DNA of 64,000 nucleotides from Candidatus Zhuqueibacterota bacterium (GCA_963169875.1 CAUJEL010000197.1:12395-76394), one strand, 5' to 3'; counted from the stretch's first letter, positions 2,042 to 41,715 are shown. Notes: generated from the sequence alone by a model not told the origin. Numbers and translations: made by a program.

Positions 2042-3127
2042 TTACGGCGCCACCAGAATCGCCACCAGCGGGCCATCCGGATCGCCGTTCTCCTGCAGGA
2101 TCGGGAAATCGCCTTTGTAGCACCAGTGGCAGTAGGCGATGCCGTTGGTTTTGAAAATGTCGACCACGTCCTGGTAGTAACGCAGCCTGATTTCGTTATC
2201 GATGGTTGGATAGACGCCGAACTCACCGCAGTACAAAGGCAGTTTTTTCTCGCGGGCATAGGTTATGGCCGGCATCATCTCTTTCTCCAGCCGCGCTTTA
2301 TCGAAAAAACCGTTGGCATAACCGCGCATGGTTTCGACCGCGGCCGGGGAGAGTTGACGGTACACCAGCGTATCCACGATCTGCCCCGGATAATTAACCG
2401 GTCCGGCATACTCCGACAGGGGTGACCACCACGCCTGATGATGCGTCAGCGCAAAAGGCGTATAAAAATGGTAACTCAGGATGAGGTGCGGGTCATTTTC
2501 CGGAATGCGCAGGGTTGGGAAGGTGTAGGCGTTTTGCCACATGTTGGAGCCGACCACAATGACCCGTTCCGGCTCTTCGGCGCGGATCTCCCTGATCATC
2601 CGGGCGATGAGATTGTTCCAGTCCTCGGGGTTGTTTGCCACCGCTTCATTGAGGATTTCATAGGCCAGCATGCTGGTGGGATACACACGCAGTCCTGCCG
2701 AGAGCTGTTTCCACAGATCCGCCAGTTTATCCTGTTCCTTTGGATCGGTCCACAGGGTATTGTTGTTGGCATTGAAATAATGCGAGCGGATGATGTGGAG
2801 ATCCACAATCACGCGCAGCTTGTTGGCCAGCGCCCAGTCGATGGCGTTGTGGAGCAGTTTGAAAGCCTCTTCCTCTTTGTGGCCGGTCGAGTCCCAGAGC
2901 TGCACTTCGTCCACCGGGATGCGCACGTGATCGAATCCCATATCGGCGATTTTTTTGAAATCTTCTGCGGTGATGTATTCGAGCCGTTCCTGGCCGCGCT
3001 TTTCGCTCTGCGACAGCCAGTGGCTGACATTGACGCCTTTTACGATTTCAAATTTGCCGGCGGCTTTCTCAGCAGCGCATGAAAGAATGAACGCAGCAAA
3101 CAATGTGTACGTGATCAGTTTTCTCAT
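2042..3127 (-). CDS. Glycoside hydrolase family 5 (endoglucanase/mannanase-like) lipoprotein
   Basis: Lipoprotein-type signal MRKLITYTLFAAFILSC. GH5 hallmarks are present: ...YEILNEA... as the acid/base region and ...LYCGEFG... as the nucleophile region. The start at 3127 is preceded by an AGGAGAAGGA ribosome-binding site. Confidence 0.7.
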   Translation of the reverse strand: MRKLITYTLFAAFILSCAAEKAAGKFEIVKGVNVSHWLSQSEKRGQERLEYITAEDFKKIADMGFDHVRIPVDEVQLWDSTGHKEEEAFKLLHNAIDWALANKLRVIVDLHIIRSHYFNANNNTLWTDPKEQDKLADLWKQLSAGLRVYPTSMLAYEILNEAVANNPEDWNNLIARMIREIRAEEPERVIVVGSNMWQNAYTFPTLRIPENDPHLILSYHFYTPFALTHHQAWWSPLSEYAGPVNYPGQIVDTLVYRQLSPAAVETMRGYANGFFDKARLEKEMMPAITYAREKKLPLYCGEFGVYPTIDNEIRLRYYQDVVDIFKTNGIAYCHWCYKGDFPILQENGDPDGPLVAILVAP

Positions 3128-3326
3128 TTTCCTTCTCCTGATTTTATTGTTTCTTGCGGAGCGTAAATAGATGCTCTGCATAGTGCGTGGTATCGATGAG
3201 GACTTTTTTCAGCAACGTCTCATAACCGCTTTTGCTCAATGCGACGTTGATGGAATCTGGCGAGATCCAGGTATCATGGACTTTCGGGCCGGTTCTATCA
3301 ATGTACGGGATGGCTCTTCCGAACGG

Positions 3327-3860
3327 TTATTGTTTCGCGTAGCTTCTGCTGAGCCACTTTTCAAACCGTCCCCCAAACCACAGCGCTGACGAAAACAGGA
3401 CAACGCCTGTCAATACCATAAGGAGGAACCATGTCCCCAGTTCGCTCCAGAACAAGGGATTGCTTTTGGTTCTGATGATCGCATAGATGCCATAGGGCAG
3501 ACTGAGAAGACTCGTCACAATGACGGGCACATATTTTTTCAACACCGCAAACATGACGATATGAAAAAGCACATGCGCGAAGAAGACGAGAAACGCGGCC
3601 GTCCAGAGTGCATACAGGTTGAACTCCACGGCCGCAAAAATCAGCGCGCTGAAGAAAATGAATTCCAGCGCGATCACGAAAGCGATGGCGGGCGTGGACA
3701 GGTTTTCGAAATGTGATAACATCCGGGATGCCAGAAACGGATACTTTTTCCGCACATCTGCGCCGTTTTTCGAGATCCAGGCTTTCATCATGATGATTTC
3801 TTCGAATTCGTGGATCATGAAAACCGGGAGCAGCAACCACATCAGATTGACAAGTTTCAT
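3327..3860 (-). CDS. HXXEE-domain membrane protein
   Basis: An HEFEE motif sits in the first TM helix and the rest is a multi-TM hydrophobic profile. It overlaps the upstream gene by 4 bp (ATGA), so it is probably co-transcribed with the DUF1295 gene. Confidence 0.55.
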   Translation of the reverse strand: MKLVNLMWLLLPVFMIHEFEEIIMMKAWISKNGADVRKKYPFLASRMLSHFENLSTPAIAFVIALEFIFFSALIFAAVEFNLYALWTAAFLVFFAHVLFHIVMFAVLKKYVPVIVTSLLSLPYGIYAIIRTKSNPLFWSELGTWFLLMVLTGVVLFSSALWFGGRFEKWLSRSYAKQ

Positions 3861-4756
3861 GGATTGTCCTTGTGTACTGCTCTGTTCGATAAAATCCGCG
3901 GAACCAGGACCGGCGTACTTGTTTTGTACCGCTCATACGCCTCCTGGCCGCCCCATTTTTGCTGTGCTTTTTTCTCCAGCAGCGGGATGCCGCTGATGCG
4001 GGTGAGGAGCACATAGACGAAGAGGGGCGAGAGCAGCGTGACCCATTGCCAGCCGTGCAATACCGGTGCCGCGATGACGGCGATCCCCACCCAGAGCATG
4101 ATTTCACCGAAATAATTCGGGTGGCGCGAGAGCGACCACAGGCCGGTGCGAATGAACCGGCCTCGGTTGGCGGGATCCTTGCTGAAACGCCGCTTCTGCG
4201 CATCAGCCACCACCTCGAATAGAAATCCGCACAACCACAGCATGAAACCGATGGCTGTTATTGCATCCATTGGTTTGCGAAGGGTTGAAGAGATCGCAGC
4301 CAGGGCGGCTGCCGCGGTGAAGGCCACCCATAATCCTTGCATGATCCAGTCGTTCAGGAAACGGATGAAGGAGGGTTTGAGCGCATCGTAGCGGTCGTCC
4401 TTGCCCGCCCGGCGGATGCGGGTGAAGAGAAAAAGGCCGAGACGGATGGCCCAGATCACAACCAGCGCTGCGATCAATGCGGCGCGTGCGTCGATGCCGG
4501 GGCTCAAGACCACGGCGAGGAGTATCAGCGTAATATAGGTGATGCTGCCAGCCAGATCATAAAAATATTCGCTTTGCAGCAGAAAAGCCGGAATGAAGGC
4601 CACTACCTGAATGGCAAAGGCCACGGCCACAGTCAGCGCAAAAACCGGCACGCCGGCGCAGACAGCCCCCCGGTGACTGCCCGCGATGGCGATCAAAGCG
4701 CCGATGAGGATAGCCAGGGGCACAGCGATGAGAGCAATACGATCAGATTTGTTCAT
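3857..4756 (-). CDS. DUF1295 family membrane protein (steroid 5-alpha-reductase / ICMT-like fold)
   Basis: Polytopic membrane protein with the C-terminal ...SLSRHPNYFGEIMLWVGIAV... signature typical of DUF1295 / 3-oxo-5-alpha-steroid 4-dehydrogenase-like proteins. Confidence 0.6.
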   Translation of the reverse strand: MNKSDRIALIAVPLAILIGALIAIAGSHRGAVCAGVPVFALTVAVAFAIQVVAFIPAFLLQSEYFYDLAGSITYITLILLAVVLSPGIDARAALIAALVVIWAIRLGLFLFTRIRRAGKDDRYDALKPSFIRFLNDWIMQGLWVAFTAAAALAAISSTLRKPMDAITAIGFMLWLCGFLFEVVADAQKRRFSKDPANRGRFIRTGLWSLSRHPNYFGEIMLWVGIAVIAAPVLHGWQWVTLLSPLFVYVLLTRISGIPLLEKKAQQKWGGQEAYERYKTSTPVLVPRILSNRAVHKDNP

Positions 4757-5018
4757 GGTTTTCTTTGATGTTACAAAAAATACGCTGCAAATGCAAGAAA
4801 AATGGTTGGTAGCCGCTATTTTCCGGTAGAACGCAACAGCTGCATTCGCGCGTACAGTATTTATGCTTGTATTACACCGGCTGATTTGCTATTTTACGAC
4901 GTCATCCGGGGCAGGCGCACCTGAGCGGCTGGCTGGTACCGATATGGCTTCGGCATGGACTCAGGCGTATCTTGCGTCTGAAAATGGAAACTTGCATGCA
5001 CAACATGACAGGAGGAAC

Positions 5019-5957
5019 ATGACAGAACCCAAAACCTCGCTCGTGCAGATTCTGCGCGCCCCGTTTTTTTCATCGATTCTGGCGCCGCTGCTTGTCGGCG
5101 CGCTTATTGGCGCCATCATCCATGGCTCAGTCGCCTGGCTGGGCCTTGCGCTCATCCTGGTGATGGGATTGGGTTTGCACGCGGCAACCAATGTGTATAA
5201 TGATATCTATGACACGCTGCAGGGTACTGATCGCATCAACCTGCATCGCAACGATTTCAGCGGCGGGTCGGGATTGCTGGTGCAGCATCCGGAACTCTTG
5301 CCGCGCATGTACCGCGTTGCGCGCGTCTCGCTGCTGGTGGCGTTGACAGCCGCGGTCGTCCTGGTATTATTATTGCCAAATCCCTTGCGGCCTTATTTGA
5401 TCGGTTTGTATGCACTGGCCGCTTTTTTCAGCAAGTACTACACCGCTGCCCCCATCAAGCTGGCATCGCGCGGCCTCGGCGAAATTTCCGTCTGGTTCGC
5501 ATTCGGCCCCATGGCCGTGCTGGCCGGTGCGCTCAGTCAGCAGGCCACCTTTCATCCCTATGTGGTGGCGGCGATGCCCTTGACCGGTTTGAGCACGGCT
5601 TCCATCCTCTGGATGGGGCAGATGATTGATCTACCCGCGGATGCCGCCGCGGGCAAGCGCGGGATGGTCGCCCGGCTTGGCAGCGGTGTTGCACGCTACG
5701 GCTTTGTGGTGATTCATCTGTTGCTGGTCACGGGCATCACTGCACTGGCCTGGCGGCTGCAACCGGCCGGATGGATCATCCTGATCGCCTTGCTGCCATA
5801 TCCATTGCTATTCCGGCGCGCCTGGCGCACGGTTCACCTCTATCACGATCAGCCCGCTGAACTGAAAGCGGCGGCGGGCCTCAACGTGCAGATGCATCTG
5901 CTGTTCTCGCTATTGATCGTTGTGGCGCTGGCCCTTGTTCTGATCCTGAACACCTGA
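5019..5957 (+). CDS. UbiA-family aromatic prenyltransferase, MenA-like
   Basis: Carries the NVYNDIYD Asp-rich motif (NDxxDxxxD) and about 8-9 predicted TM helices. The N-terminus (LVQILRAPFFSSILAPLLVGALIG) resembles MenA / DHNA-octaprenyltransferase. An internal ATG at 5019 was chosen over the longer 4863 ORF. Confidence 0.7.
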   Translation: MTEPKTSLVQILRAPFFSSILAPLLVGALIGAIIHGSVAWLGLALILVMGLGLHAATNVYNDIYDTLQGTDRINLHRNDFSGGSGLLVQHPELLPRMYRVARVSLLVALTAAVVLVLLLPNPLRPYLIGLYALAAFFSKYYTAAPIKLASRGLGEISVWFAFGPMAVLAGALSQQATFHPYVVAAMPLTGLSTASILWMGQMIDLPADAAAGKRGMVARLGSGVARYGFVVIHLLLVTGITALAWRLQPAGWIILIALLPYPLLFRRAWRTVHLYHDQPAELKAAAGLNVQMHLLFSLLIVVALALVLILNT

Positions 5958-6023
5958 TGCTGCTTGAAATCAAGGTACTATTTCCAATGCACACCATCTT
6001 CTCGTTGAATAACGGATATTACG

Positions 6024-7025
6024 ATGTTCAAGAAAATCAGCCAGGTTCTGGATCCGCTCGCTTTCCACGGCGCCGCTAAAAAACCGCCTTTTTTCGAGGG
6101 GTGGTATTTCAAGTGCGTCAGCGGCGGCGGGGAGCAACTCGCCATCATTCCGGGTGTGCACCTGCATCCGCAGGCCGGGGAGAGTCACGCCTTCATTCAG
6201 ATACTGCAGGGCGGCAGCAACGCTACGAACTATATCCGCTATCCGCTTACAGACTTTAAGGCGGCGACAAGAGGTTTATCCTTTTCGCTATCCGGCAACC
6301 ATTTTTCGTTACATCAAATCCATCTGGATATCAATGAACCCGGACTGCGGCTGTGCGGTGAAGTGCATTTTTCCGGCCTGCAGCCGTGGCCTGTGACTGT
6401 ACGCTCGCCCGGGGCCATGGGCTGGTATGCCTGGGCGCCTTTCATGCAGTGCTACCATGGTGTCGGCAGTCTCGATCACCTCTTGTCCGGCCGGCTTTCC
6501 CTCAATGATCACCCGATTGATTTCACCGGCGGCCGCGGTTATCTGGAAAAAGACTGGGGGTCCTCATTCCCCAGCGCTTACATCTGGATGCAAAGCAACC
6601 ATTTTGCGATTCCGGCGACCGGTTTGATGATTTCCGTAGCGATGATTCCATGGCTAGGCGGCAAATCGTTCGCAGGATTCATCGCGGGCTTTTTGCTCAA
6701 TGGCCGCTTGTTCAGGCTGGCGACCTATACCGGTGCAGACTTGCGCGTTTTGCGGGTGGAGGATCACACGATCCATGTGGAAATTGAAAGCCGTCGTCAT
6801 CGTCTCCAGGTGACGGCGCACCGGGCCACAGGCGGGTGGCTGCAGGCGCCCGGCACGAGCGGCATGGGCGCGCGCATCGCGGAAACCCTGCAGGGCCGGC
6901 TCGATGTCCTGTTTTTTGAAAAGAAATCATCGCGGGAGAACCTGCTGTTCAACGGTACTGGCTTGCATGCGGGATTGGACGCCGCCGGGAAATTGTCGCA
7001 GTTATGCGAGGCCGGTGATGCGTGA
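6024..7025 (+). CDS. Tocopherol-cyclase-like protein (VTE1 / PF14249 family)
   Basis: The N-terminal PPFFEGWYFK motif matches the conserved FFEGWY(F/Y) block of plant and cyanobacterial tocopherol cyclases. The soluble ~330-aa length fits. The gene lies 66 bp downstream of the UbiA gene on the same strand. Confidence 0.5.
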   Translation: MFKKISQVLDPLAFHGAAKKPPFFEGWYFKCVSGGGEQLAIIPGVHLHPQAGESHAFIQILQGGSNATNYIRYPLTDFKAATRGLSFSLSGNHFSLHQIHLDINEPGLRLCGEVHFSGLQPWPVTVRSPGAMGWYAWAPFMQCYHGVGSLDHLLSGRLSLNDHPIDFTGGRGYLEKDWGSSFPSAYIWMQSNHFAIPATGLMISVAMIPWLGGKSFAGFIAGFLLNGRLFRLATYTGADLRVLRVEDHTIHVEIESRRHRLQVTAHRATGGWLQAPGTSGMGARIAETLQGRLDVLFFEKKSSRENLLFNGTGLHAGLDAAGKLSQLCEAGDA

Positions 7026-7482
7026 TTTTTTCATACAGAGCCTGCTGATCCTCACGGATTACGAAAAATTGCCTCATATGATGATGTTACTGAATGCCCC
7101 GACAAAATAAAAGAATAATTCGATACCGGCTTCTAACCTGTTCAATTCATAAACCGCCGCGATCGCCAAGCTGTTTTTATCGGGATTATCAATAAATTTA
7201 TGTTTTGTATTTCATCTCAATCATAAAAGTTACTATCGATGCTATTTTTTTTGTTTTTTTTTGTGCGTCTCTGCGTTCTCGGTGGTGAATAATTCAGGCC
7301 AACCTTTTTTTGACGTTATCAATGTGATCCCATCCTGCGAAATCATTGGCAGCAATTTTCATGCTGCATGCGAAATCATTTTTATATCTCTTCCCTTTGC
7401 TGTATATTATCAGTCCCATTTCAGTTGATCTGTTAAATGCTTTCTCTTTAATGATTACTTCATAAACAGCGCAGGTCCTTTC

Positions 7483-9639
7483 ATGAAACACATTATAGAG
7501 CGAAAGTCTCTGGTCGTCCTTTTGTATAGCGTTTATGCCCTGGCCGCCAGCTATGCCGGGCATGCTGATGCCGCAGGGGCGCGGTATGGTGCCAGCCTTG
7601 ACGAGGCATCCCCTCAGGTCCATGCCTATCACGCAAAATCGATGGCCGCAGCGCAGTGGTTCATCGCGCCCGGCGGTTCGGACAGCAACACCGGCTCCAT
7701 CGGCGATCCTTTCGCCACCCTGGAAAAAGCGAGCACGGTGGCCAATCCGGGAGATACCATCTATTTCCGCGCTGGCACCTATGGCGGCATCCGCCATAAC
7801 TTTCGCAACAGCAGCGGCTCGCCGGGCCAGCCCATCGTCGTGCGGCCGTATCAGGGCGAATCCGTCGTGCTCGACGGCACCGGCGTCAGCATCAGCAGCA
7901 GTCAATCGCTCCTGTCCGTCGCCAGCTACGATCCCGAGCCTCTGCATGACATCTCCATCGAAGGACTGGAGGTGCAAAATTCAAGCGGCCGCGGCATCAC
8001 CTATTACAATGTGACGCAGTTGCAGATCAAGGAGTGCACGGTGCACCACATCGCCTACAAGGGCATTGGCGGCTGGGGACATTACGTCACCATCAGCGCC
8101 AATACCGTGCATCATGCCGCCATGATTAATGAGAACGGCGTCATCGTCGGCGGCGGCTGGCCCGGCATCATTCAACCCAGCGAGAACTATGTGGACGGCG
8201 CGCCGGCCACCTGGCATACCATCTCGGGCAATACCGTGCACGATTGCTGGGGGGAAGGCATCCTCATCGGCAACAGCCACCATGTGACCGTCGAAAACAA
8301 CCTCGTCTATGACGTATTCAGCGTGCTGATCTACCTCGACAAGGTGAGTGACGTACTGGTGCGCAACAACTATCTCTACTGCGTCAATCCCGCCTATAAC
8401 CGGCCGGATAAGGGATATCCCGCCAATGCCATTTCCATGGCCAACGAAGCGCCCATCTCAGCGGGCGAGATCCCCATCGCCCGCATTCACATCTATAATA
8501 ATATCATGGCCGGCTGCGGCCGCGGCATCTCCTACTGGCAGGATTCGGCCAACACCGACGTTGAAAACAGTTATAGCGCGGTCTCGGTCTTTCATAACAC
8601 CATACACGATCCGGTGCACCAGGCCATCTGGTTCGACGAGGTACCCGCCGGTTACTCTGCGCCAGTGGATTGCCACATGCACAATAATATCATCGACCGC
8701 GGCAGCCTGCAAGCCGATGTGGGTAATCCTTCGGCCTGGTCCTTCAGTCACAATAACTGGGTGGTCAGCATTCCGGCTTTTGCAACCGACGCCAACAGCT
8801 TCACCGGGGATCCCCTGTTTACCGCTGCGGTGCCGGGCGGCGCAGCCGCGGGATTTCAACTCCAGTCCATTTCGCCCAACGTTAACGCCGGCAGCTTGTG
8901 CACCCCGGCTGTTGATGAGGATTACAGCGGCCTGGCGCGCGACGACGATCCGGATATCGGCGCTTATGAATACCCGCTGCCCGCACTGAAAGTACAAATG
9001 CGCCTGCTGCTGCAGGGCGCCTACGATGCGGCCGGCGACAGCCTCCGCACTGATCTGATTGCAGGCGGGTGGCTTACCCATGAATCCCCTTATGCCCAGG
9101 ACGCTGTGACGTTGAACCGGTTTCCCGACGATTCGCTGCAAATAGTTGATTGGATATTGCTGCAGCTGGTCGAGAATGACGGCGTCACCGTGGCTGCTTC
9201 CCGGAGTGCCTTCATCAATAAGGACGGATGGACCAGGAGCCGGTCGGGCCGGGATATGCTCTCTTTTCCGGGCGTCGCAGCGGGAACCTACTATCTTGGC
9301 GTGCGTCATCGCAATCACCTGACTGTGATGAGCGCCACCGCCCGGGTACTGGATAGCGGGATCCCCGCTGCTTTTGACTTCACCACAAGCCGTGATCAAT
9401 ATTATGGCCCGGAAAGCCGTGTGGAACTGGCCAGCGGCACATGGGGCGTGACCGCCGGGGATATGAATCAGGATGGCTTTATGACCACGAGCGATTACGT
9501 GCTTTGGTTCAATGCGCAGCGCGCCGCAGCGAGCGGCTATCAGATTCCGGATTTGACGCTGGATGGACAGGTCGATGCCGCTGATTTTCAGGTCTGGCAG
9601 TCGAATGCCCGGTGTGGATATGAGAGCGGACTGCCATGA
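7483..9639 (+). CDS. Secreted right-handed parallel beta-helix (pectate-lyase-fold) protein with a C-terminal dockerin-like module
   Basis: Signal peptide, a DUF1565-like start (GDTIYFRAGTYGG), repeated NxxGxxxxG beta-helix rungs, and a DIGAYEY cap. The C-terminus has two Ca-binding-loop-like segments, DMNQDGFMTTSD and DLTLDGQVDAAD. Confidence 0.6.
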   Translation: MKHIIERKSLVVLLYSVYALAASYAGHADAAGARYGASLDEASPQVHAYHAKSMAAAQWFIAPGGSDSNTGSIGDPFATLEKASTVANPGDTIYFRAGTYGGIRHNFRNSSGSPGQPIVVRPYQGESVVLDGTGVSISSSQSLLSVASYDPEPLHDISIEGLEVQNSSGRGITYYNVTQLQIKECTVHHIAYKGIGGWGHYVTISANTVHHAAMINENGVIVGGGWPGIIQPSENYVDGAPATWHTISGNTVHDCWGEGILIGNSHHVTVENNLVYDVFSVLIYLDKVSDVLVRNNYLYCVNPAYNRPDKGYPANAISMANEAPISAGEIPIARIHIYNNIMAGCGRGISYWQDSANTDVENSYSAVSVFHNTIHDPVHQAIWFDEVPAGYSAPVDCHMHNNIIDRGSLQADVGNPSAWSFSHNNWVVSIPAFATDANSFTGDPLFTAAVPGGAAAGFQLQSISPNVNAGSLCTPAVDEDYSGLARDDDPDIGAYEYPLPALKVQMRLLLQGAYDAAGDSLRTDLIAGGWLTHESPYAQDAVTLNRFPDDSLQIVDWILLQLVENDGVTVAASRSAFINKDGWTRSRSGRDMLSFPGVAAGTYYLGVRHRNHLTVMSATARVLDSGIPAAFDFTTSRDQYYGPESRVELASGTWGVTAGDMNQDGFMTTSDYVLWFNAQRAAASGYQIPDLTLDGQVDAADFQVWQSNARCGYESGLP

Positions 9640-9745: not shown

Positions 9746-12571
9746 ATGAAAAATTCAATGCACATGATTCTTTTTAAGAGTTGCGCGCTCCTCAGCCTGC
9801 TGATAAATACAGCGGTTTTGCCCAATCCGCTGACGCCTGAGACCAGCGGCAACCCGCGACAGCGCATCTCCATCAACGATGATTGGCGTTTTTGCAAGTA
9901 TGCTGAAACAGAGGTCGCGGATGACCTCATCTACGACGCACGCCCGGAGGTCAAGGGCCCCTGGGCGTACGGCCCCGCGGATGCCAAACCCACTGCGGCG
10001 GAAAGCTTGAACACGGCGCAACAAGTACTCAAGCCGTGGATAATGCCGAGCGGCAATGATTTTATCGAAGAGCCTGAAAAACGCCATGTCCGCCCCGAAG
10101 ACGAGCCTGGTTCCAACTTTGCTTTTGTACAGAAAGATTTTGATGACCGTTCATGGCAGCGGGTGAACCTCCCCCACGACTGGGCCGTCAAGGGACCATT
10201 TATGCGGGATCAGGATGAAAAAGTGGGCGGCGGCATGGGGCGCCTGCCCAGTCCGGGCGTGGCCTGGTACCGGAAGAAACTCGATATCCCTGCAGCGGAC
10301 GCCGGCAAAAGCTTTTTTCTTGATGTGGACGGTGCCATGTCGTATGCCATGGTCTGGCTCAACGGCCATCTGGTCGGCGGCTGGCCGTACGGCTACGCCT
10401 CCTGGCGACTCGATCTCACGCCATATATCGTGGTGGGCGGGGCTAATCAACTCGCTATCCGCCTGGACAATCCGCCCAGTTCCTCGCGCTGGTATCCGGG
10501 CGGCGGCCTCTATCGCAATGTCTGGTTGACCAAAACCGGACCGGTTCATCTGGGACACTGGGGCACTTCTGTCACGGCAAGCGAAGTGACCAGGCAATCC
10601 GCAATCATTAATCTGCAAGTGACCATCGATAATGATGCCTGTCAACCAAGTGCTGTCAAAGTGGTCACGCAGATTTTTGTGTTGCAGACAGATGGCGAAA
10701 AGAGCGGCAAAGCCGTAACCTCCTATGGTCAGGTCGCAGCGCACAAGGGACATGCGCAGAGACGGGGTGCAAATCTGGACGGCAACGCTGTGGCCTCCTT
10801 TCTCCCGGTTGAAACCAGCATACCAGCGGGAGCGCGCAAAAAGGTGGAGGGCTCCCTCCGGCTCGAAAATCCCCGGTTGTGGGGCCCGCTGCCCACCCAG
10901 TCGCCCAACCGTTATGTGGCGGTGACAACGCTGTGGCAGAATGACCGCTTGATCGATCAATACGAAACCCCCTTTGGCGTCCGCTCGCTGCGATTCGATC
11001 CGAATGCGGGCGTCTACATCAATGACGAACTCGTCAAGATCAAGGGTGTCAACCAGCATCATGACCTCGGCGCCCTGGGCGCTGCGTTCAATACGCGCGC
11101 TGCCGAGCGTCAGCTCGAAATCCTGCGCGAGATGGGCTGTAATGCCATCCGCATGGCGCACAATCCACCCGCGCCTGAATTGCTCGAGTTGACCGACCGC
11201 ATGGGCTTTCTGGTGATCGATGAAGCCTTTGATGTCTGGTATCGCAAGAAGACGCCGCTTGATTTTCACCTGATATTTGGCGATTGGCATGAGCAGGATT
11301 TGCGCGCCATGGTGCGACGCGACCGCAATCATCCTTCGGTGATCCTGTGGAGCTTTGGCAATGAGGTGGGCGAACAGTACACCGATGTCGAGGGCGCCGC
11401 AGTGGCGCAGCGGTTGCACGACATCATCAAGGAAGAAGACCCCACCCGTCCCACGACCTGCGCAATGAATTGGGCCAAGCCGGACATGCCTCTGCCCGCG
11501 GTCATGGATGTGATCAGCCTGAATTACCAGGGCGAGGGCATCCGTCAGGCGCCCGAGTTCGAGGGGACGGATCGCATCCGCACAGCGCCGCAATACGACG
11601 CCTACCATGAGAAATTCCCGGATAAGGTCATTCTCAGCAGTGAAACCGCGTCGGCGATCAGCAGCCGCGGCATTTATCTTTTTCCTGTATCGCCGGTAAT
11701 CAGCGCACCCGCACGCGATGGCAGGGGAGGGGATGCGAAGATTCGCCAGGTAAGCGCCTACGAACTCCATGCCGTCGATTTCGGTTCAAGCGTAGATAAG
11801 GTTTTCGCTTCACTCGCACGCCATCCTTTTGTCGCCGGCGAGTTCGTCTGGAACGGCTGGGATTACCTCGGCGAGCCCACGCCCTACTACGAATCGCGCA
11901 GTTCCTATTCCGGGATCATTGATTTGGCTGGGTTCAAAAAGGATCGCTTTTATCTCTACCAGGCGCACTGGCGCCCGCAGCTGCCCATGGCGCACATTCT
12001 GCCGCACTGGAACTGGCCGGAACGCCTCGGCCAGGTCACGCCGGTGCATGTGTTCACCTCCGGGGATGAGGCGGAGCTGTTCCTCAATGACAAATCACTC
12101 GGCATGCGCCAAAAAAGCCAATCCGAGTTCCGGCTGCGCTGGGATGACGTGGTTTATGAACCAGGTGCATTGAAGGTGGTCGCTTACAGGGACGGGAAAA
12201 AATGGGCTGAAGAGATGGTTGTAACCACGGGAGAAGCAACGCGTTTGCATGCTGAGCCGGATCGCGCGGTGATCAAGGCCGACGGACGGGATTTGTCTTT
12301 TATAACAGTACGCGTTGTGGATCAAGATGGACGAACGGTGCCGCGCGCGACCAACCTCATCCAATTCAGTATCGAGGGACCGGGCGAGATCGTGGCCACG
12401 GACAATGGCGATCCCACCAATCTGGTCGCGTTCTCCTCGCACGAGCGTGCGGCCTTCAGTGGTCTGGCCCTGGTTGTTGTCCGCGGCAAACCAGGAAAAT
12501 CGGGGGCGCTAAAAATTCGCGCCGTTTCGCCGGGATTGAAAGAGGGGCAAGCGCGAATCAAAGTCCGGTGA
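9746..12571 (+). CDS. Glycoside hydrolase family 2 (beta-galactosidase/beta-glucuronidase-like)
   Basis: Signal peptide; INDDWRF sugar-binding domain start; TIM-barrel motifs NAIRMAHNPP and WSFGNEVGE (acid/base Glu). The 941-aa length with C-terminal Ig-like/DUF4982-like domains fits GH2. Confidence 0.8.
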   Translation: MKNSMHMILFKSCALLSLLINTAVLPNPLTPETSGNPRQRISINDDWRFCKYAETEVADDLIYDARPEVKGPWAYGPADAKPTAAESLNTAQQVLKPWIMPSGNDFIEEPEKRHVRPEDEPGSNFAFVQKDFDDRSWQRVNLPHDWAVKGPFMRDQDEKVGGGMGRLPSPGVAWYRKKLDIPAADAGKSFFLDVDGAMSYAMVWLNGHLVGGWPYGYASWRLDLTPYIVVGGANQLAIRLDNPPSSSRWYPGGGLYRNVWLTKTGPVHLGHWGTSVTASEVTRQSAIINLQVTIDNDACQPSAVKVVTQIFVLQTDGEKSGKAVTSYGQVAAHKGHAQRRGANLDGNAVASFLPVETSIPAGARKKVEGSLRLENPRLWGPLPTQSPNRYVAVTTLWQNDRLIDQYETPFGVRSLRFDPNAGVYINDELVKIKGVNQHHDLGALGAAFNTRAAERQLEILREMGCNAIRMAHNPPAPELLELTDRMGFLVIDEAFDVWYRKKTPLDFHLIFGDWHEQDLRAMVRRDRNHPSVILWSFGNEVGEQYTDVEGAAVAQRLHDIIKEEDPTRPTTCAMNWAKPDMPLPAVMDVISLNYQGEGIRQAPEFEGTDRIRTAPQYDAYHEKFPDKVILSSETASAISSRGIYLFPVSPVISAPARDGRGGDAKIRQVSAYELHAVDFGSSVDKVFASLARHPFVAGEFVWNGWDYLGEPTPYYESRSSYSGIIDLAGFKKDRFYLYQAHWRPQLPMAHILPHWNWPERLGQVTPVHVFTSGDEAELFLNDKSLGMRQKSQSEFRLRWDDVVYEPGALKVVAYRDGKKWAEEMVVTTGEATRLHAEPDRAVIKADGRDLSFITVRVVDQDGRTVPRATNLIQFSIEGPGEIVATDNGDPTNLVAFSSHERAAFSGLALVVVRGKPGKSGALKIRAVSPGLKEGQARIKVR

Positions 12572-12823: not shown

Positions 12824-15800
12824 TTATTTCAGCAGCAACATGCGCTTGATCTCTTTGAACGAACCAGCCTCCAGACAGTAGAAATAGAATCCGCTCGGCA
12901 GGGCGATCGCATCCCAGGTGGTCGTGTACTGCCCGGCCGCCTGACGTGTTTCAACCAGCCTGGCGATCTCCCGCCCCTGCACATCATAGACTGTAAGACG
13001 CACCTGCATCTCCTCCGGAATCTGGTACACAATGGCCGTGACGGGATTGAATGGATTCGGATAATTCTGCTGCAAAGAGACAGTCTGCGGCAGCGCTGTC
13101 TCCGGTTCCAGCGGTTCCTCCTCATCCAGTTCCTTGGTCGCCAGCGGCAGACGCGCCAGCGCCGTCACGCCGGATGGCCGGTTGCTCTCGATCCATTCCG
13201 GATCCGAATAATCTTCACCATTCGTTTTGCCCAGTTGACCGTTATTCCGAAACGGACTGAGATCGGTGAGCTCCTGGCCCTGACCTTCGTCGAAATCGTA
13301 ATAGGCAACCAGGCCCGGTTCGTAGGTTGTCAGACGGTTGAAAATCATCTGGTTTATTTCTGCTTCGGAGCGCGCGACATTCCACAAACTCAATTCATCC
13401 AGCAATCCTTCATAGTGATACTCATAGATGTTGCCGTGTTTGGCGGCGCCGATGAAAAGGTCCTTGAGCAGATCGCGCGGGGCTGCGGTGGCCGCGCGCA
13501 TGGATTCGAGGCGGCCGTTGAGATAGAGCCGGGTTTGAGCCCCATCAAAAGTCAAGGCCGCGTGCACCCAGGTGTTGACCGGAATGGCGGAGGCCGAGGG
13601 TCCCACGATGTTATTCATGCGCGAGCCGCCCGGAATCGCCGTCCGCAACGCAGCGCACATCCTGTCCGTCGCGCCATAAAAACTGACATAGTACTCGTCA
13701 AAGGCGCCCTTTTCCAGAATACGGCTCCATTTCTGGGCAGGATCGTCAGTCTTGAACCAGAATGCGATGGTAAATTTTCGCGTGATGTTGAGGCTGGCAT
13801 CGTGGGGCACCTGGACAAAATCGTCAATGCCGTCAAACGCCAGGGCAAAATTGGGCAGAGGCGCCACTTCCCTGATCATGATTTTGAAAACCGCATCGCT
13901 GGTGTCCGCCGGTGCAGCGCCTGCGGAGGCGGCGACGCGCACCAGTGCGGAATCGGTCGCCGTGTTCGGCAAGGTCCATGTGTACACGCCGGAATCAGGT
14001 TGCGCGTTCGCCAAGAGCAGCCAGGATTGACCGTTATCAAGGGAGTAGTGCAAATCCACGGTGCCGGTGAAGGCGCGGGAGCGCCACTGTACCTGATAAG
14101 TGTCGCCGGCAAACAGGGTGTCGCCGCCATTGGGCGTCATGACCCATAATTTCGGCGGCGGATTCACAAACTGGAACTTGCCCCACATCACATCCCACGG
14201 GCACGAATGGCGTCCCGCCTCACGGATGCGCAGGGTGGCCTTTTCCTGGCTCAGGAAGGGCACATCCCAGATGAACGAGCCATCGTCCGGCGTGCTGGGG
14301 GTGATCACCAGCGGAAAGGTCACGCCCAGATCGAAAGAGAGGTCGATGGCCACATTGGCGGCGATGCGCCAGGATTTCCAGAGAATTTCAAAAGGTTCGC
14401 CGCGCACCACATCCAGGGAATCGTGCGGGGCGATAATCTGCACCCAGTGATCCGGATTCATCCAGTGGTATTCCGCGGTGAGGTCGTTGGTCAGAACGAT
14501 GCGATCCAATCGCGTATAGTTTTCGCGGCTGCGAACGGTGATTTGATGGGCGCCGGCGGTCAGATTCAGGAGCACCATATCCGGTTCCGACAGACGTTGC
14601 CAGTACCAGACGCCATCGCCTTTGCGGATTTCCCAGAGGTGTTCATCGCCGCCATCGCAGGAGACCCAGAAGGAATTGCGCGTACCGCCCGGCGCCTGGG
14701 CGCGGCCCCAGAGCACATAGAGGCCGGGTTTGGCGACGGTCACATTGAATACCGCCTTGCCGCTGTTATTTTTGTCCGAATAGATGGCTTCGCAATCGAA
14801 GGACGTGCCGTTGATCCACTTGCGCATGGGCGCGGTCAGGGCCGCATCTTCGGCCTCCATTTGCAGCTGCGCCTGCCAATTGGCGCCGGATATCGTGATG
14901 GGACTGTCATTGACATCGAATTCGGCGGGCGTTGTGCTGTTGACAACCTTGAACAGTCCGTTGGTCGTAGACAGACCAGGGACGAATGTGGCGAACGATC
15001 CGGTATTGTTGATATTTTGCGCCAGAGGTATCCATTTCGTGCCGCCATCCGCTGAAAAGTAGAGATCGACTTTGAGGGCATTATTGCCCGGCAGCCAGGT
15101 GATGGTCAACGGGTCGGCGATGTTCAGGCTGCCGCCATTGGGAGACGCCAGTACCAGCACGGTTGGCGACAAAATCGCGACCTGATAATCCTCAACTTCC
15201 CCGTCTCCGGCAAAACCGGACGGGGTCAGATTTTGCTCTGTGGAGAGACGGAACCGTGCGAATGTGTTTACTTGAACAGCGCTGGACGGCACATTGAGCA
15301 AGAGGTTGTTACTGCCTGCTGTTACCGCGCGATTGATGACAACCTGTTCTGAGGCATCGTTCCAGTCGCCATCCACATTCCAATCGATCCAGGCATTCAG
15401 ATAGGCCTGGATCCCTGTGGTGTTCTCTACCGTAACTTCAATAACTGCCTGCAAACCCTTATATAGCAGGGGAAGGGTGACGCCCTCTTCATCGTCGGTG
15501 CCATCGGCATCATCTCCCTGCGCCATTGCATCGGGCATGCCATCCACATCATGATCGATCAGCGCACCCAGTTTGAGCCTGGCATCGATCAGGTGCCCCG
15601 CGCCATTGCTGGTCAGGAGCGTGGCATAGGTTGGATCGGGTGCGTCGCCCAAATCCCATTCCATGATGTACTGGTGCGACATGGTGTTGTTGGTCCCGTC
15701 GCATTCGCCAACTGCAAGATTCGGATCGATGGTGGCTGTGAAGTTACAGCTGGATGAGATTGGGGTAAAATTGAAGGTCACATCGGCCGCTGCGCCGGCT

Positions 15801-17635
15801 GCCAGGTCAATCGATTGTTCCGTGAATGTCAAACCACAATCCGAGATCAAACGGACGACGGTGCCCAGGACGCTGCCGCAGCCTGGATTGGCTGCACGGA
15901 CGCGCACGGATACCTGCCAGTTCCCCACAACCTGCGGGGTGATCGATTGGATGGTTAAATCCGGAATCTGCAAGGCTTTGTTGGAAACCAGGCTATTATT
16001 GGTTTCATTGGTTTCTGCGATTACATGGCTATAGTCCGCTTCGATATTGAATGAAACCCCACAGCCGGTGCTGTTGACGCAAAGATTGGTCGTCAGGGTT
16101 TGCTCTGTGATGGTGAAAAGCTGTGTGCCGCTTCCCGGCAGATTAACGCCGACGAAGGTTTGCGTCCATTGATCGATTATATTACCGCTCCCCCCGTTGT
16201 TATCATACAGCGTAAATCGCATCGGGACGTCCATATTGCACGTGGTGGTGCCGGTATTTGCCAGCGTCACGGTGCCGGTGATTTGCACTTGCCCGTCCGC
16301 TATGGGGGTTATGGTCAGCGTATTGGTTGAAACCGAGAGATCAATGGCGTTCAGGTTAACGTTATAATCTTCAACTTCGCCGTCCGGTGCCGCGCCGTTG
16401 TAGGGGAGATTTGCCGTCGAACCCAAGCGAAAGCGTGCGCAGGTGGAGCCGGGCGATGCGGTGGCAGGGACGGTGATGGTAAGATTATTTGCCCCTGCTG
16501 CCAGCGTCAGATTTGTGGCGATCTGTTCGCCGCTGTCGCTCCAGTCGCCATCGCGGTTCCAGTCGATCCACGCATGCAGATAAGGTGTTGCGACGCCCGC
16601 TGTATTGGTGAGCGATATGGAGAGGGTGGCGGGTTGGCCGGGCGTCAAGTCGGGGATGGTGACGCCGTCTTCGTCATCGCCGGCGGTATCGTCGCCAGTG
16701 GCGTTGGCATTCGGTTGGCCATCATTTTCGGAATCGATGGATGCGCCCAGAGAAAAGCCGGTCAGGATAGTATGTATCGCGCCATTACTGGCCAACAGCG
16801 TGGGAAAGGTGGGATCAGGCGCATCGCCCAGATCATAGGCCACGAGATTGTTGGCCAGGGTCCAGCGCGAAAAAGCGTTGATACTTGCCAGAGCCACGTT
16901 GTTATCTGACGGGTTCGGGGTGCCGCCTTCACTGCTCCAGGAGGCGCCGGCGTTTGTCGAGCGGTACAGCTTAAGGGACGGTTCGAGTTGTCCGTTCAGT
17001 TCGCTTTCATCGTAATGAAAAATCAATGCAGCGTTGAGGCCGCTGTTCTGCGTCGGCGAGATATCAAAATAACGGGTGATGCCGCTGCTGCCGCTGCCGC
17101 TTTGCGCGGCGTGACCGCGGCGGATTTCGGTGACGCCGAGATCCGCGGCTGTGGTCAGTTCAGCGCCGAGTCCGCCAACATCGAGTCCGCTGGGGGCGTT
17201 GAGCGTGCGCGTTGTGGTGAGATAGCCGGAACTTCCTTTGACGGTGTTGCCCGCGGTTTCGCTCAGGGTGGCGGTCGTGCTCAGCGTGATGATGTTGCCG
17301 TTGAGGTCCACATCGCCCGTGGTCACAGTGAAGAGATTGTTCACCGTGAAGCTGTTGTGCAGCAGCAGATTGCCGGCGCTCTTGTTCAGCGTCAGATTAT
17401 TGAAGGAGACCCCGGTGCCGTCGTGGATGTTTTGATCTCCGCTTGCGCCATTGAAGACAACAGTACCGGTTTGGGCGTTGAAGGTGCCGCTGTTGTTCCA
17501 GTCGCCCGGCAGGCTGAGCGTGGCGCCACCCAGGGAAAATGTCGCGCCGCTACTGATGGTGAGGCCGGCGGCGTGCAGGTAAGAGGCTGCACAAATCAGA
17601 AGTACTGTTATTGCTTTGAAAGCAGGGCTTTTCAT
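12824..17635 (-). CDS. Giant T9SS-secreted surface/adhesin-like protein (GEVED x2, CARDB-like, LamG-like, T9SS C-terminal sorting domain)
   Basis: Signal peptide and an autotransporter-passenger-like N-terminal repeat region. There are two internally duplicated ~170-aa modules each ending in DGEVEDY (a GEVED domain). A LamG/concanavalin-like block (FKTDD...LTFDGAQTRLYLNGRLES) follows. The C-terminus carries the Por_Secre_tail signature NYPNPFNPVTAIVYQI. Confidence 0.75.
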   Translation of the reverse strand: MKSPAFKAITVLLICAASYLHAAGLTISSGATFSLGGATLSLPGDWNNSGTFNAQTGTVVFNGASGDQNIHDGTGVSFNNLTLNKSAGNLLLHNSFTVNNLFTVTTGDVDLNGNIITLSTTATLSETAGNTVKGSSGYLTTTRTLNAPSGLDVGGLGAELTTAADLGVTEIRRGHAAQSGSGSSGITRYFDISPTQNSGLNAALIFHYDESELNGQLEPSLKLYRSTNAGASWSSEGGTPNPSDNNVALASINAFSRWTLANNLVAYDLGDAPDPTFPTLLASNGAIHTILTGFSLGASIDSENDGQPNANATGDDTAGDDEDGVTIPDLTPGQPATLSISLTNTAGVATPYLHAWIDWNRDGDWSDSGEQIATNLTLAAGANNLTITVPATASPGSTCARFRLGSTANLPYNGAAPDGEVEDYNVNLNAIDLSVSTNTLTITPIADGQVQITGTVTLANTGTTTCNMDVPMRFTLYDNNGGSGNIIDQWTQTFVGVNLPGSGTQLFTITEQTLTTNLCVNSTGCGVSFNIEADYSHVIAETNETNNSLVSNKALQIPDLTIQSITPQVVGNWQVSVRVRAANPGCGSVLGTVVRLISDCGLTFTEQSIDLAAGAAADVTFNFTPISSSCNFTATIDPNLAVGECDGTNNTMSHQYIMEWDLGDAPDPTYATLLTSNGAGHLIDARLKLGALIDHDVDGMPDAMAQGDDADGTDDEEGVTLPLLYKGLQAVIEVTVENTTGIQAYLNAWIDWNVDGDWNDASEQVVINRAVTAGSNNLLLNVPSSAVQVNTFARFRLSTEQNLTPSGFAGDGEVEDYQVAILSPTVLVLASPNGGSLNIADPLTITWLPGNNALKVDLYFSADGGTKWIPLAQNINNTGSFATFVPGLSTTNGLFKVVNSTTPAEFDVNDSPITISGANWQAQLQMEAEDAALTAPMRKWINGTSFDCEAIYSDKNNSGKAVFNVTVAKPGLYVLWGRAQAPGGTRNSFWVSCDGGDEHLWEIRKGDGVWYWQRLSEPDMVLLNLTAGAHQITVRSRENYTRLDRIVLTNDLTAEYHWMNPDHWVQIIAPHDSLDVVRGEPFEILWKSWRIAANVAIDLSFDLGVTFPLVITPSTPDDGSFIWDVPFLSQEKATLRIREAGRHSCPWDVMWGKFQFVNPPPKLWVMTPNGGDTLFAGDTYQVQWRSRAFTGTVDLHYSLDNGQSWLLLANAQPDSGVYTWTLPNTATDSALVRVAASAGAAPADTSDAVFKIMIREVAPLPNFALAFDGIDDFVQVPHDASLNITRKFTIAFWFKTDDPAQKWSRILEKGAFDEYYVSFYGATDRMCAALRTAIPGGSRMNNIVGPSASAIPVNTWVHAALTFDGAQTRLYLNGRLESMRAATAAPRDLLKDLFIGAAKHGNIYEYHYEGLLDELSLWNVARSEAEINQMIFNRLTTYEPGLVAYYDFDEGQGQELTDLSPFRNNGQLGKTNGEDYSDPEWIESNRPSGVTALARLPLATKELDEEEPLEPETALPQTVSLQQNYPNPFNPVTAIVYQIPEEMQVRLTVYDVQGREIARLVETRQAAGQYTTTWDAIALPSGFYFYCLEAGSFKEIKRMLLLK

Positions 17636-24612: not shown

Positions 24613-26217
24613 TTATTTCCCCGCCTCCGCGTCTGCCTGCAAATCCAGCAGTCGCGCGTGCTCGATGGCCTGCATGCGGCCTTTGGGCAGGGTTGGTATG
24701 GCTCCCCAGTCGCCGGATTTGGGCACGGGCCGCACCGCCAGCAATCTTTTCTTCATCCGTGAACGGCCGCGCAAATAATGCACAAAATGATAGCCTGCAA
24801 TAATGGAACGTATTCCTTCGACAGGTTGAAGGAGCGCTTGAAAAAGTTTCATAAAGAGATACCTGGGTCGAAAATGAAAGCGGATGAAGGCGCGATCGCA
24901 AAAGGCATCGATCTCGTCCGGTTTGAGGCCGGGCAGATTGAGCACACAGCGCGGCATGCCATGTTCGGTCAACCAGTCGCGAAAATTTTCCGTGGCCAGA
25001 TAGTTGCGATCCCGATAATACGTATAGGCGCTGGTGCCGGGATAGGGCATGAGAGGGTAAAACTGGGCGCTGTCCGGATTGAGCCGGTAGGCGAACTTTA
25101 GCAGCTCGCGCATGCTCTTGCGCGTTTCGCCTGGAAAGCCGAACATGAAACAACCGTGCACCAGTATGCCCAACTCGCGTGCGTTTTCCATAAAGGTTTG
25201 CGCGAGTTCCTCGGTTTCATTTTTGTTCATGCTGTAAAAGAACTCTGTGTTCATGGAGTCAAATCCAACCGAGCAAATGCGCAGGCCCGCATCCTTGAGG
25301 GATTCGAGGCTGCTGCGGTCGAGATGGGCGCGCACATTGGCGAAAAAGGGCAACTTGATGCGGCGGTATTTGGCCACTTCACCGAGCCGGCGCGCAAAAA
25401 CGCGGTCATCACCAAAATTATCATCCTCAAAATTGATCTGCTTGATCTCAGGCATGTTTTCCTGAATCCATAACATTTCGTTGGCGATATCTTCGGCCGT
25501 GCGGTGTCGGTAGGCATGGCCATGGCTGATCTGCGGATAGGCACAAAAGAAACACTTGGATTTGCAGCCGCGGCCGGCGATGATCTGCACCATGGGATTA
25601 TGGGAAAGATTAAAGTAATAATTTCGCGGTACGAGAAAACGCTTGTAGACGGGTGAAACCCAGGAGAGTTGGTCCAGATGTTGGCGGGGAAGGCGTTCCG
25701 GCGTCCGCTGCCAGCCCTTGCCGGTGCGAAAAATCACGCCGGCAATATCTGAAACATCACGATTCCCCTCCAGCGCTGCGGCCATCTCCGCGATGGTGTC
25801 GTCATATTCTCCCAGCGCGATGAAATCGACGGCGGGCGCCCGCTCCATGGTCTCGTCATGGAGGGCGGTGACGTGATTGCCCACCAGGCAAATCTTGATG
25901 CGGGGATGCGCTCTTTTAATGACATTGGCCACCTCACAGTCGGAGTACCAGCTCGGTGTGGAGGATTCCATGACGATCAGGTCGGGCCGGAATTTGCCGA
26001 TTTCTTGATCGAGGGCGGACATAGTCATCCGGGCTGGAGGACAGTCGATGAGATGAATCTCATGGCCTTTTTCTTCGGTCTCCGCAGCAGCCTGGGCCAG
26101 CCAATAGGGATAGAACATGGTCTCCGATTTGAAAACAGCCGGCATGCGATGGCTGCGGCTGAAACGCGGCAGAAAAGGCGGGTTGATAAATTGTACGCGC
26201 ATGTGACGAATATCCAT
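24613..26217 (-). CDS. B12-binding-domain radical SAM protein (class B radical SAM methyltransferase-like)
   Basis: N-terminal cobalamin-binding Rossmann region, then a CxxxCxxC cluster (CKSKCFFC) at the start of the radical-SAM core. 534 aa. Confidence 0.75.
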   Translation of the reverse strand: MDIRHMRVQFINPPFLPRFSRSHRMPAVFKSETMFYPYWLAQAAAETEEKGHEIHLIDCPPARMTMSALDQEIGKFRPDLIVMESSTPSWYSDCEVANVIKRAHPRIKICLVGNHVTALHDETMERAPAVDFIALGEYDDTIAEMAAALEGNRDVSDIAGVIFRTGKGWQRTPERLPRQHLDQLSWVSPVYKRFLVPRNYYFNLSHNPMVQIIAGRGCKSKCFFCAYPQISHGHAYRHRTAEDIANEMLWIQENMPEIKQINFEDDNFGDDRVFARRLGEVAKYRRIKLPFFANVRAHLDRSSLESLKDAGLRICSVGFDSMNTEFFYSMNKNETEELAQTFMENARELGILVHGCFMFGFPGETRKSMRELLKFAYRLNPDSAQFYPLMPYPGTSAYTYYRDRNYLATENFRDWLTEHGMPRCVLNLPGLKPDEIDAFCDRAFIRFHFRPRYLFMKLFQALLQPVEGIRSIIAGYHFVHYLRGRSRMKKRLLAVRPVPKSGDWGAIPTLPKGRMQAIEHARLLDLQADAEAGK

Positions 26218-38486: not shown

Positions 38487-38700
38487 GATTCCTCTTTTCC
38501 CGTTTTGGTATAACTCTTGCATAACCACATCACAGTGTAATATATAAAAATAATAAAAACAATCAATAAAAAAGATGGCAGGCAAAAAAGTGTGGCATAA
38601 AATGGTCATTGTGAAATAATAAATCAAAGAAAACGATGACTATGGGTGTGTCATGCCACATTATGATCAACGGGGCTGTGTGTGGGAAGGCGGAAAAACC

Positions 38701-41700: not shown

Positions 41701-41715
41701 ACGCTGCTGAAGTGA
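38701..41715 (+). CDS. T9SS-secreted zinc metalloprotease (M6/immune-inhibitor-A-like HExxH domain) with three tandem FN3/Ig-like repeats and a T9SS C-terminal sorting domain
   Basis: Signal peptide; HEMLHSVGFPDLYHY (HExxH...GxPDLY as in M6). Three ~95-aa repeats each end in ...T(Y/W)(Y/F)WRV(R/A)G.N..G.G.WS. A VELVSFTA...LEWVTASETENYGFDVER domain follows, then NYPNPFNATTVITYQL (Por_Secre_tail). Confidence 0.6.
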   Translation: MNVSGKFILIGAGLLVVLVCFPVSEAQAAYLRDVPVAFRQPDGTVLSCYVSGDEFFNWAHDRDGYPIMRDPSSGFYVYATVVDGVPVPTHLRVGEAVPARASLNKDFKMAPQRWEEMRQQFISKPRAFFPPERQLAPKTGVLQNIVIFIRFSDEAEFTTPISVYETSFNSDIPGVNSLRNYFQEVSYNRLLVQSYFYPLPGVNVVSFQDSHPRGYFMPIALDPLGYSDSAERDQREQTLIRDALLAVKAQIPGDLDLDGDDDGQVDNMVFIISGTPTAWNTLLWPHAWSLYMYTVYLNGAQVVPYNFQIQSFLSNGSTHVLAHEMLHSVGFPDLYHYASDGLSPVGAWDIMASPTAPPQHPGAYTKWRYGGWIDAIPEIAANGGYALNPLTSPLGNCYKILSPEDPGGAQFYVVEYRKKQTGTFDATVPGEGMLVYRIDRRNPGIQGSTAIPEEVYIYRPGGTLSTNGSLSTAHFSQGSGRNLINNGTDPVPWLADGTPGGLNLFNIGEAAETISFTAGLTAPQAPVLVAPADHALDAPLSVLLTWDASAGAESYDIQVSTDPDFNNLIMDKADNVLNFWPVNSLVRSTTYYWRVRGQNYQGEGVWSPYFQFTTLPDLPAAIRLSSPENGWVDVTLNPVLVWQNDQLATSYHLQLSLTSDFDPVVHNFTNLPATEQSVSGLNSGSTWYWRVAGHNGAGDGPWSDVWSFTTIQSPANAPVLSWPLDGALGETVNPALSWAGVNGASAYEVALDVSADFPAPVFHTSSATGAGVTASNLENMTTYFWHVRGLNEAGPGPWSSIRSFTTQELPVELVSFTATAHFQGIHLEWVTASETENYGFDVERKAANSGAGESAWSKINFVEGHHSTSVEHTYQYLDQDVTVGDYAYRLKQIDLDGHYAYLPEQQVSWAQPLQWKLDQNYPNPFNATTVITYQLQQPGPVQLAIINAMGQTVRSLVQNFAAAGEHVVRWDGCDDHGLPVAGGIYYYTLRCAEFQETRAMTLLK

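Follow-up and report, generated by a model that had tools for sequence, protein, structure and literature searches.

A 64,000-nucleotide stretch of DNA from a Candidatus Zhuqueibacterota bacterium (GCA_963169875.1 CAUJEL010000197.1:12395-76394; hereafter the window, with positions counted from its first letter) carries two adjacent genes that probably constitute a two-gene, co-transcribed biosynthetic module. The first gene (5019-5957, plus strand) encodes a 312-amino-acid prenyltransferase of the UbiA family that resembles MenA and UBIAD1, and the second (6024-7025, plus strand), which follows after 66 bp, encodes a 333-amino-acid protein that resembles tocopherol cyclases. Because the two genes adjoin one another so consistently across FCB-group lineages, independently of how they are arranged, we consider a functional link between their products to be very likely. 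The complete model, in which the pair also brings about closure of a chromanol-type ring, is less secure, and we assign it a probability of about 0.5. It is built on the family memberships of the two proteins, their intact catalytic motifs and their conserved adjacency.

In the proposed pathway, the MenA/UBIAD1-like membrane prenyltransferase would use a polyprenyl or phytyl-type diphosphate to prenylate an aromatic quinol precursor, which could be 1,4-dihydroxy-2-naphthoate (DHNA) or a benzenoid analogue. The cyclase-like protein, acting peripherally, would then protonate the first (proximal) double bond of the prenyl chain, and attack by the neighboring (ortho) ring hydroxyl would close a ring of the chromanol type. 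In this way a quinone-respiring and apparently non-photosynthetic FCB-group (KSB1-like) bacterium would obtain a lipid like the tocochromanols, which could plausibly serve as an antioxidant of the membrane. The sequence of the reactions, the identity of the acceptor, the closure of the ring and the role in physiology are our inference; the affinity of the prenyltransferase to MenA suggests DHNA as the acceptor, and a benzenoid acceptor is also possible.

A prediction made earlier by a model from the sequence alone (the original prediction) had connected the second gene to tocopherol cyclases through the FFEGWYF block of its product. This similarity is not fortuitous, as the protein scores 59.5 bits with PF14249, for which the gathering score is 26.6 (E-value 3.8e-16). 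The match spans residues 130-321, and relatives in other gene contexts score 65-98 bits with the same model. The cyclase-like family, which has at least 3799 database members, is tightly conserved: over 100 members, 62 alignment columns are at least 95% conserved, and these include the two motifs YLEKDWG (residues 173-179) and FPSAYIWMQSNHF (residues 182-194), the latter fitting the pattern FPxAYIWxQSNHF. For true tocopherol cyclases, YxEKNWG and FP+xWxW+QxNxF have been proposed as catalytic (Dluzewska et al., PMC4963081). Relative to these, the window protein has N changed to D in YLEKDWG and the first W changed to Y in FPSAYIWMQSNHF, and the residues E175, K176, W178, G179, W188, Q190, N192 and F194 are each conserved in at least 95% of the family members compared. 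Since the tocopherol-cyclase motifs are kept, the protein looks catalytically intact. AlphaFold2 predicts an all-beta double barrel (pLDDT 87), to which the solved folds of AttH, of kievitone hydratase and of the pericyclases Fsa2/Phm7 come closest (Foldseek E-values of 1e-8 to 1e-9, TM-scores of about 0.5-0.6), and such a predicted fold fits acid-catalyzed activation of a prenyl double bond. A search of PDB sequences with the family profile returned no solved relative and no tocopherol cyclase structure. The protein is soluble and probably acts as a prenylquinol cyclase.

The resemblance to tocopherol cyclase (VTE1/SXD1/Synechocystis slr1737; EC 5.5.1.24) therefore includes membership in PF14249 above the gathering threshold, an N-terminal FFEGWY block, and the motifs in the general forms YxEK[N/D]WG and FPxx[W/Y]xWxQxNxF. 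It extends to gene context, in that the window gene is coupled to an aromatic prenyltransferase gene and relatives lie in clusters with genes for HPPD, homogentisate phytyltransferase (HPT), methyltransferases and geranylgeranyl reductase (GGR). However, the window protein is shorter (333 amino acids versus 488 in Arabidopsis; PMC4963081), its strong alignment with the Pfam model is confined to the C-terminal half, and its motif differs by the two substitutions noted above (Asn to Asp, Trp to Tyr). Its activity is predicted only, its partner is MenA-like rather than HPT, and its host is apparently a non-photosynthetic FCB bacterium; nothing in the 64-kb window points to phototrophy, although the window is too short to exclude it. 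With AttH, CrtC, kievitone hydratase and Fsa2-Phm7 the protein shares the predicted fold and the notion of alkene or prenyl activation inside a beta-barrel, but identity to them is 11-14%, and those proteins carry out hydration, Diels-Alder cycloaddition or lyase reactions.

The prenyltransferase is polytopic and has the motifs of the UbiA superfamily (PF01040, E-value 1.1e-14, 54.8 bits), including NVYNDIYD. Among NCBIfam models, those for MenA match it best, and every one of them stays far under its cut-off (NF004751, 93.5 versus 264 bits; TIGR02235, 91.5 versus 225; TIGR00751, 68.9 versus 102); the closest solved structure is human UBIAD1 (8djk; E-value 8e-9). Both Asp-rich motifs are invariant across the family alignment (N58, D62 and D65 in the first, D204 and D208 in the second), and the first is followed by an invariant loop, TLQGTDRINxHRNxFSGGSG, that is peculiar to this subfamily. 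Family members whose source is named belong to KSB1, Calditrichota, Chlorobiales and Ignavibacteria, those of KSB1 being nearest to the window's protein, and the NCBI pipeline labels them plainly as 'prenyltransferase'. The KSB1-like placement of the organism rests on these nearest named homologs, and tails of the FlgD_ig/T9SS type likewise mark it as FCB-like. Thus the protein is like MenA and UBIAD1 in its NxxNDxxD first motif, its DxxxD second motif, its similar length and its polytopic character, but unlike them it stays under all MenA equivalog cut-offs, has a loop of its own and, in the loci examined, lies beside a cyclase-like gene or a DUF92 fusion gene and never beside men genes. It represents a distinct MenA/UBIAD1-like subfamily of the FCB group.

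It might be argued that this enzyme is nonetheless a divergent housekeeping MenA. The cyclase-like protein would then hydrate a double bond of the menaquinone side chain or cyclize isoprenes of its tail, rather than form a chromanol. The prenyltransferase does indeed find its best matches in MenA (NCBIfam) and UBIAD1 (PDB), and a prenyl hydratase, other beta-barrel lyases and pericyclases are among the folds closest to that of the cyclase model; kievitone hydratase and CrtC are enzymes that hydrate side-chain double bonds. A need for a respiratory quinone is also apparent from a complex I (NADH:quinone oxidoreductase) operon at 43679-52910, which encodes the 49-kDa subunit, a NuoH-like subunit, a 4L-containing open reading frame (ORF) and three antiporter-like subunits, and from which it follows that the organism has a membrane respiratory quinone pool; such a pool is equally in keeping with the chromanol model. 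However, the scores of the prenyltransferase are two to three times under the MenA equivalog cut-offs, its NCBI label goes no further than 'prenyltransferase', and men genes are found neither among its conserved neighbors in 82 loci nor in the 64-kb window. For these reasons we do not regard it as a bona fide MenA. The cyclase-like protein, for its part, has retained the motifs of tocopherol cyclases, and close relatives of it occur in HPPD/HPT clusters, where the expected role is ring closure. Hence, a housekeeping MenA accompanied by a side-chain hydratase or tail cyclase appears unlikely, although it merits attention.

A functional link between the two genes is supported by their neighborhoods. 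In the first of two independent surveys, a profile of the cyclase-like family was compared with one genome per GTDB species, and 80 loci out of at least 568 matching stretches were analyzed. Most of these are from Anaerolineae/Chloroflexota, and about 20 are from FCB-group bacteria or archaea. A prenyltransferase ortholog with 52-68% identity directly adjoins the cyclase gene in six FCB loci, where the two genes are either co-oriented (L001, L004) or divergent (L015, L021, L025, L046). In a second survey, which was anchored on the prenyltransferase, a subfamily profile was compared with metagenome contigs to give another 80 loci, among which near-duplicates are present so that the counts are not fully independent. 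A cyclase-like gene is present in 42 of these and absent from 12 that have at least 1.3 kb on each side, and the remaining 26 are too short to judge; the gene is therefore found in 42 of 54 informative loci. It lies less than 400 bp from the prenyltransferase gene in 37 loci, in three arrangements (downstream and co-oriented, upstream and divergent, or upstream and co-oriented). Adjacency is seen in KSB1-like bacteria, Calditrichota, Chloroherpetonaceae, Ignavibacteria and metagenome-assembled genomes (MAGs) labeled 'Cytophagia'. It could still be supposed that the adjacency is meaningless and that the two genes serve unrelated processes, as no experiment links them and the cyclase gene is missing from 12 of the 54 informative loci. 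However, this seems very improbable given that adjacency persists in three orientations and in several phylum-level lineages, and that the cyclase, the prenyltransferase and a DUF92 protein co-occur in two loci (L148, L162).

Relatives of the cyclase-like protein in other FCB bacteria lend weight to the chromanol idea of the original prediction, as they sit in complete clusters of the tocopherol type. On a Latescibacterota chromosome (OZ252228.1; L059:5340-11632), the gene order is GGR, HPPD, cyclase, two methyltransferases and HPT. The HPPD of this cluster scores 414 bits with TIGR01263 (cut-off 277) and its HPT scores 401 bits with NF009525 (cut-off 226), and both thus pass as equivalogs. 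Similar clusters are present in three Calditrichaceae MAGs (L005, L044, L079), and neither lineage is known as phototrophic. The cyclases of these clusters share 43-46% identity with the window protein. In a neighbor-joining tree of 100 cyclase-like proteins they interleave with the group that contains it; the deep branches of this tree are poorly resolved, and all that we draw from it is the lack of a clean separation between the context groups. Within such an HPPD/HPT cluster, chromanol ring closure is the only sensible role for the cyclase-like protein. The HPT of the Latescibacterota cluster has no significant similarity to the window prenyltransferase by BLASTP. Because the MenA-like pairing and the HPPD/HPT clusters both occur in FCB bacteria, this group, on the sequence evidence, couples one cyclase family to either of two unrelated aromatic prenyltransferases, the MenA-like enzyme or HPT.

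Vitamin E is made by HPPD, HPT (VTE2), MPBQ-MT (VTE3), TC (VTE1) and gamma-TMT (VTE4), with GGR and VTE5/VTE6 supplying phytyl diphosphate. The window resembles this pathway in placing an aromatic prenyltransferase before a cyclase, and in some relatives a DUF92 (VTE6-family) protein is encoded near the prenyltransferase. It differs in that it has two genes only, its prenyltransferase is of another UbiA clade, and HPPD, HPT and methyltransferase genes are not found in the 64 kb, such a context being found only in the one Latescibacterota and three Calditrichaceae loci. Searches of the window by tblastn for HPT-like, gamma-TMT-like, GGR, CrtI, PSY, CruF and DUF92 sequences likewise gave no match. 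One position in the second cyclase motif (Tyr186 in the window protein) follows the partner, being Tyr in 35 of 37 proteins linked to a MenA-like prenyltransferase and Trp in all four that are linked to HPT; Trp is also found in 49 of the remaining 59 cyclase-like proteins. This correlation would fit a difference in head group, and the position is a candidate determinant of head-group specificity.

Several points weigh against chromanol formation by the pair. No gene for a methyltransferase, HPPD or a reductase lies beside the pair, whether in the window or in its relatives, and neither the prenyltransferase subfamily nor the cyclase-like subfamily includes a characterized enzyme. We found no literature that links tocopherol cyclase to these phyla, although reports of chromanols as such were not searched for. 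Moreover, Arabidopsis tocopherol cyclase did not cyclize menaquinol-4, naphthoquinol-4 or phylloquinol (PMC4963081). This result also favors the housekeeping-MenA explanation, and a naphthoquinol substrate would therefore require an altered specificity, of which the Tyr/Trp switch may be a hint. A bolder form of our proposal is that FCB bacteria (KSB1, Calditrichota, Ignavibacteria and Chloroherpeton-like organisms) make a naphthoquinol-derived chromanol ('menachromanol' or naphthotocopherol) through this dedicated pair, which would represent a new class of bacterial membrane antioxidant. We put this forward tentatively, as it is considerably less probable than ring closure in general.

A further difficulty is that in Chloroflexota the cyclase-like gene has carotenoid genes as its neighbors (CruF-like, CrtI-like and phytoene synthase, together with GT2 and PlsY-like), and no UbiA-superfamily gene is found within 8 kb of it. 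In the Anaerolineae loci (L023, L030, L033, L042, L047, L066, L068, L076, L078 and others; for example L047:6245-8650), a CruF-like PF04240 gene is directly adjacent in 9 loci; a phytoene synthase gene is present in 8, and 19 have a CrtI-like gene. The substrate range of the cyclase family may thus be wider than prenylquinols. Taken further, these contexts would allow the substrate of the window pair itself to be an isoprenoid other than a quinone, for example a carotenoid or another polyprenyl lipid, with the UbiA protein elongating or attaching the prenyl group and the cyclase-like protein cyclizing or hydrating an end group. This is improbable, however, since the UbiA protein is MenA/UBIAD1-like and has no match to lycopene-elongase-type or other families, carotenoid genes are found neither in the window nor in the pair-carrying FCB loci, and FCB relatives pair the cyclase with HPT, which is another aromatic prenyltransferase. 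Two further observations concern the distribution of the cyclase-like family. The CruF-like gene is often only 3 nucleotides downstream of the Anaerolineae cyclase-like gene, and a protein with a lycopene-cyclase domain is also encoded there. In addition, tocopherol-cyclase-like proteins occur in archaeal MAGs (L070:7974-8984, from Methanosarcina, and L062:1354-2349); these are 41-42% identical to the window protein and match PF14249 at 77 bits, and the neighbors of the Methanosarcina copy are without Pfam matches.

Relatives of the prenyltransferase also have a second recurrent neighbor, which bears on the prenyl donor of the proposed chromanol pathway. A DUF92 (PF01940) fusion gene lies beside the prenyltransferase gene in 17 of the 80 loci anchored on it, usually in convergent orientation (among them L132, L136, L138, L142-L144, L146, L148, L152, L158, L160 and L162; for example L142:7674-8996), and is found in 11 of the 12 loci that have no adjacent cyclase. 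The product is a membrane protein of roughly 440 amino acids, and DUF92 forms its C-terminal half. VTE6, the phytyl-phosphate kinase of plants, is a member of the DUF92 family, and this neighbor therefore hints at a dedicated supply of a salvaged prenyl-diphosphate donor. The N-terminal half (about 200 amino acids) has no Pfam match. A VTE5-like phytol kinase was suspected there by eye from an RKLIH motif, and in view of the Pfam result we make no such claim.

The original prediction had joined to the pair two genes that are transcribed divergently from it, and had suggested that one of them saturates the prenyl chain. These encode an HXXEE membrane protein (3327-3860, minus strand; PF13787, E-value 1.3e-23) and a DUF1295 membrane protein of the steroid-5-alpha-reductase/ICMT-like type (3857-4756, minus strand; PF06966, E-value 1.5e-64), the latter with weaker additional matches to Steroid_dh, ICMT and PEMT, and the two ORFs share 4 bp. 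A single pathway that comprises all four genes is favored by their tight divergent arrangement in the window and in a relative with 88% identity (L081), which retains all four. However, a relative with 80% identity (L082) has the prenyltransferase-cyclase pair only, preceded by an unrelated zinc-ribbon gene, and neither DUF1295 nor HXXEE was found in any of the 80 cyclase-anchored genome loci or the 80 prenyltransferase-anchored metagenome loci. The conservation of neighborhoods, which the original prediction had named as a check, therefore holds for the prenyltransferase and cyclase but fails for the other two genes, and the four-gene cluster is rejected. A locus with a 70%-identical DUF1295 gene (L167) is instructive, as this gene lies beside genes for a GH5 cellulase and a HYDIN-like giant protein in synteny with the left flank of the window, yet HXXEE, UbiA and cyclase genes are not beside it. 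An HXXEE gene is likewise missing beside the DUF1295 homologs of L165 and L166, the Anaerolineae homologs are solitary, and the homologs at 64-70% identity have unrelated gene contexts, with neither HXXEE nor the prenyltransferase-cyclase pair next to them. By this comparison, DUF1295 and HXXEE are unrelated neighbors in a lineage-specific juxtaposition and not members of the module. Since DUF1295 is not co-conserved with the pair, its supposed prenyl-saturating role is without comparative support; moreover, the reductase that co-occurs with the cyclase family is GGR. Overall, a four-gene pathway is scarcely credible.

The DUF1295 gene is of separate interest. Apart from two near-identical relatives, its closest homologs have 64-70% identity, and those whose source is named are all from Anaerolineales/Chloroflexi. 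Because this identity is unusually high across phyla, it suggests that the gene was acquired by horizontal transfer.

The four ORFs were confirmed at the coordinates predicted for them within 3327-7025, as was the 66-bp spacing, and their matches to the expected Pfam families (PF13787, PF06966, PF01040 and PF14249) lie far above chance. One adjustment is needed. The UbiA ORF extends over 4863-5957 as predicted, but the gene almost certainly starts at 5019, since a database protein that is 100% identical to the product (P0121) has 312 amino acids and every homolog begins at the equivalent Met. With this start, the divergent intergenic region corresponds to 4757-5018 (262 bp), which we presume to include the promoter region of the prenyltransferase-cyclase pair. 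A scan of positions 3100-7500 for sigma-70 promoters and terminators gave only chance-level matches, and such a scan does not cover FCB promoters. The flanking genes encode unrelated carbohydrate-active or secreted proteins, with a GH5 cellulase on the left (2042-3181) and a beta-helix protein (7483-9639) and a GH2 protein (9746-12571) on the right.

Both protein families were known before, and it is their pairing and the predicted product that are new. Heterotrophic bacteria have been reported to possess tocopherol-cyclase-like proteins with no assigned function (2016, PMC4963081), in agreement with the earlier statement that these homologs are uncharacterized. This was the sole relevant paper found, as literature searches on what tocopherol-cyclase-like proteins do in bacteria or on a link to methyl-plastoquinone returned nothing else of relevance, and full-text searches retrieved no description of a MenA-like/cyclase pairing or of tocopherol-type clusters in these phyla. 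The pairing provides a concrete hypothesis for the bacterial tocopherol-cyclase-like proteins that can be tested with two genes. It points to undescribed chromanol or cyclized-quinone lipids in widespread, mostly uncultured bacteria of sediment and sludge; such lipids would bear on oxygen tolerance and are possible lipid biomarkers, and the genes could yield new enzymes for antioxidants that are vitamin-E-like or derived from vitamin K. Tocochromanols (vitamin E) are, as is generally taught, made by oxygenic phototrophs alone. If the bolder, naphthoquinol-based form of our proposal is correct, then together with the clusters that encode HPPD, HPT, methyltransferases, GGR and cyclase it would extend tocochromanol biosynthesis beyond these organisms.

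Elsewhere in the window, a scan of positions 1-64000 with Rfam gave no family at its gathering score. A B12-binding radical SAM enzyme (24613-26217, minus strand) and a full-length cobalamin-dependent methionine synthase (MetH; 57344-60754, minus strand) are encoded, and both are unrelated to the pair. There are also two large proteins of secreted type, one of 1603 amino acids (12824-17635, minus strand) with a C-terminal tail that by eye resembles those of the type IX secretion system, and one of 1020 amino acids (38653-41715, plus strand) with a C-terminal FlgD_ig domain. Because these are accompanied by GH5, GH2 and GH38-like glycoside hydrolases, the window suggests a polysaccharide-degrading FCB lifestyle.

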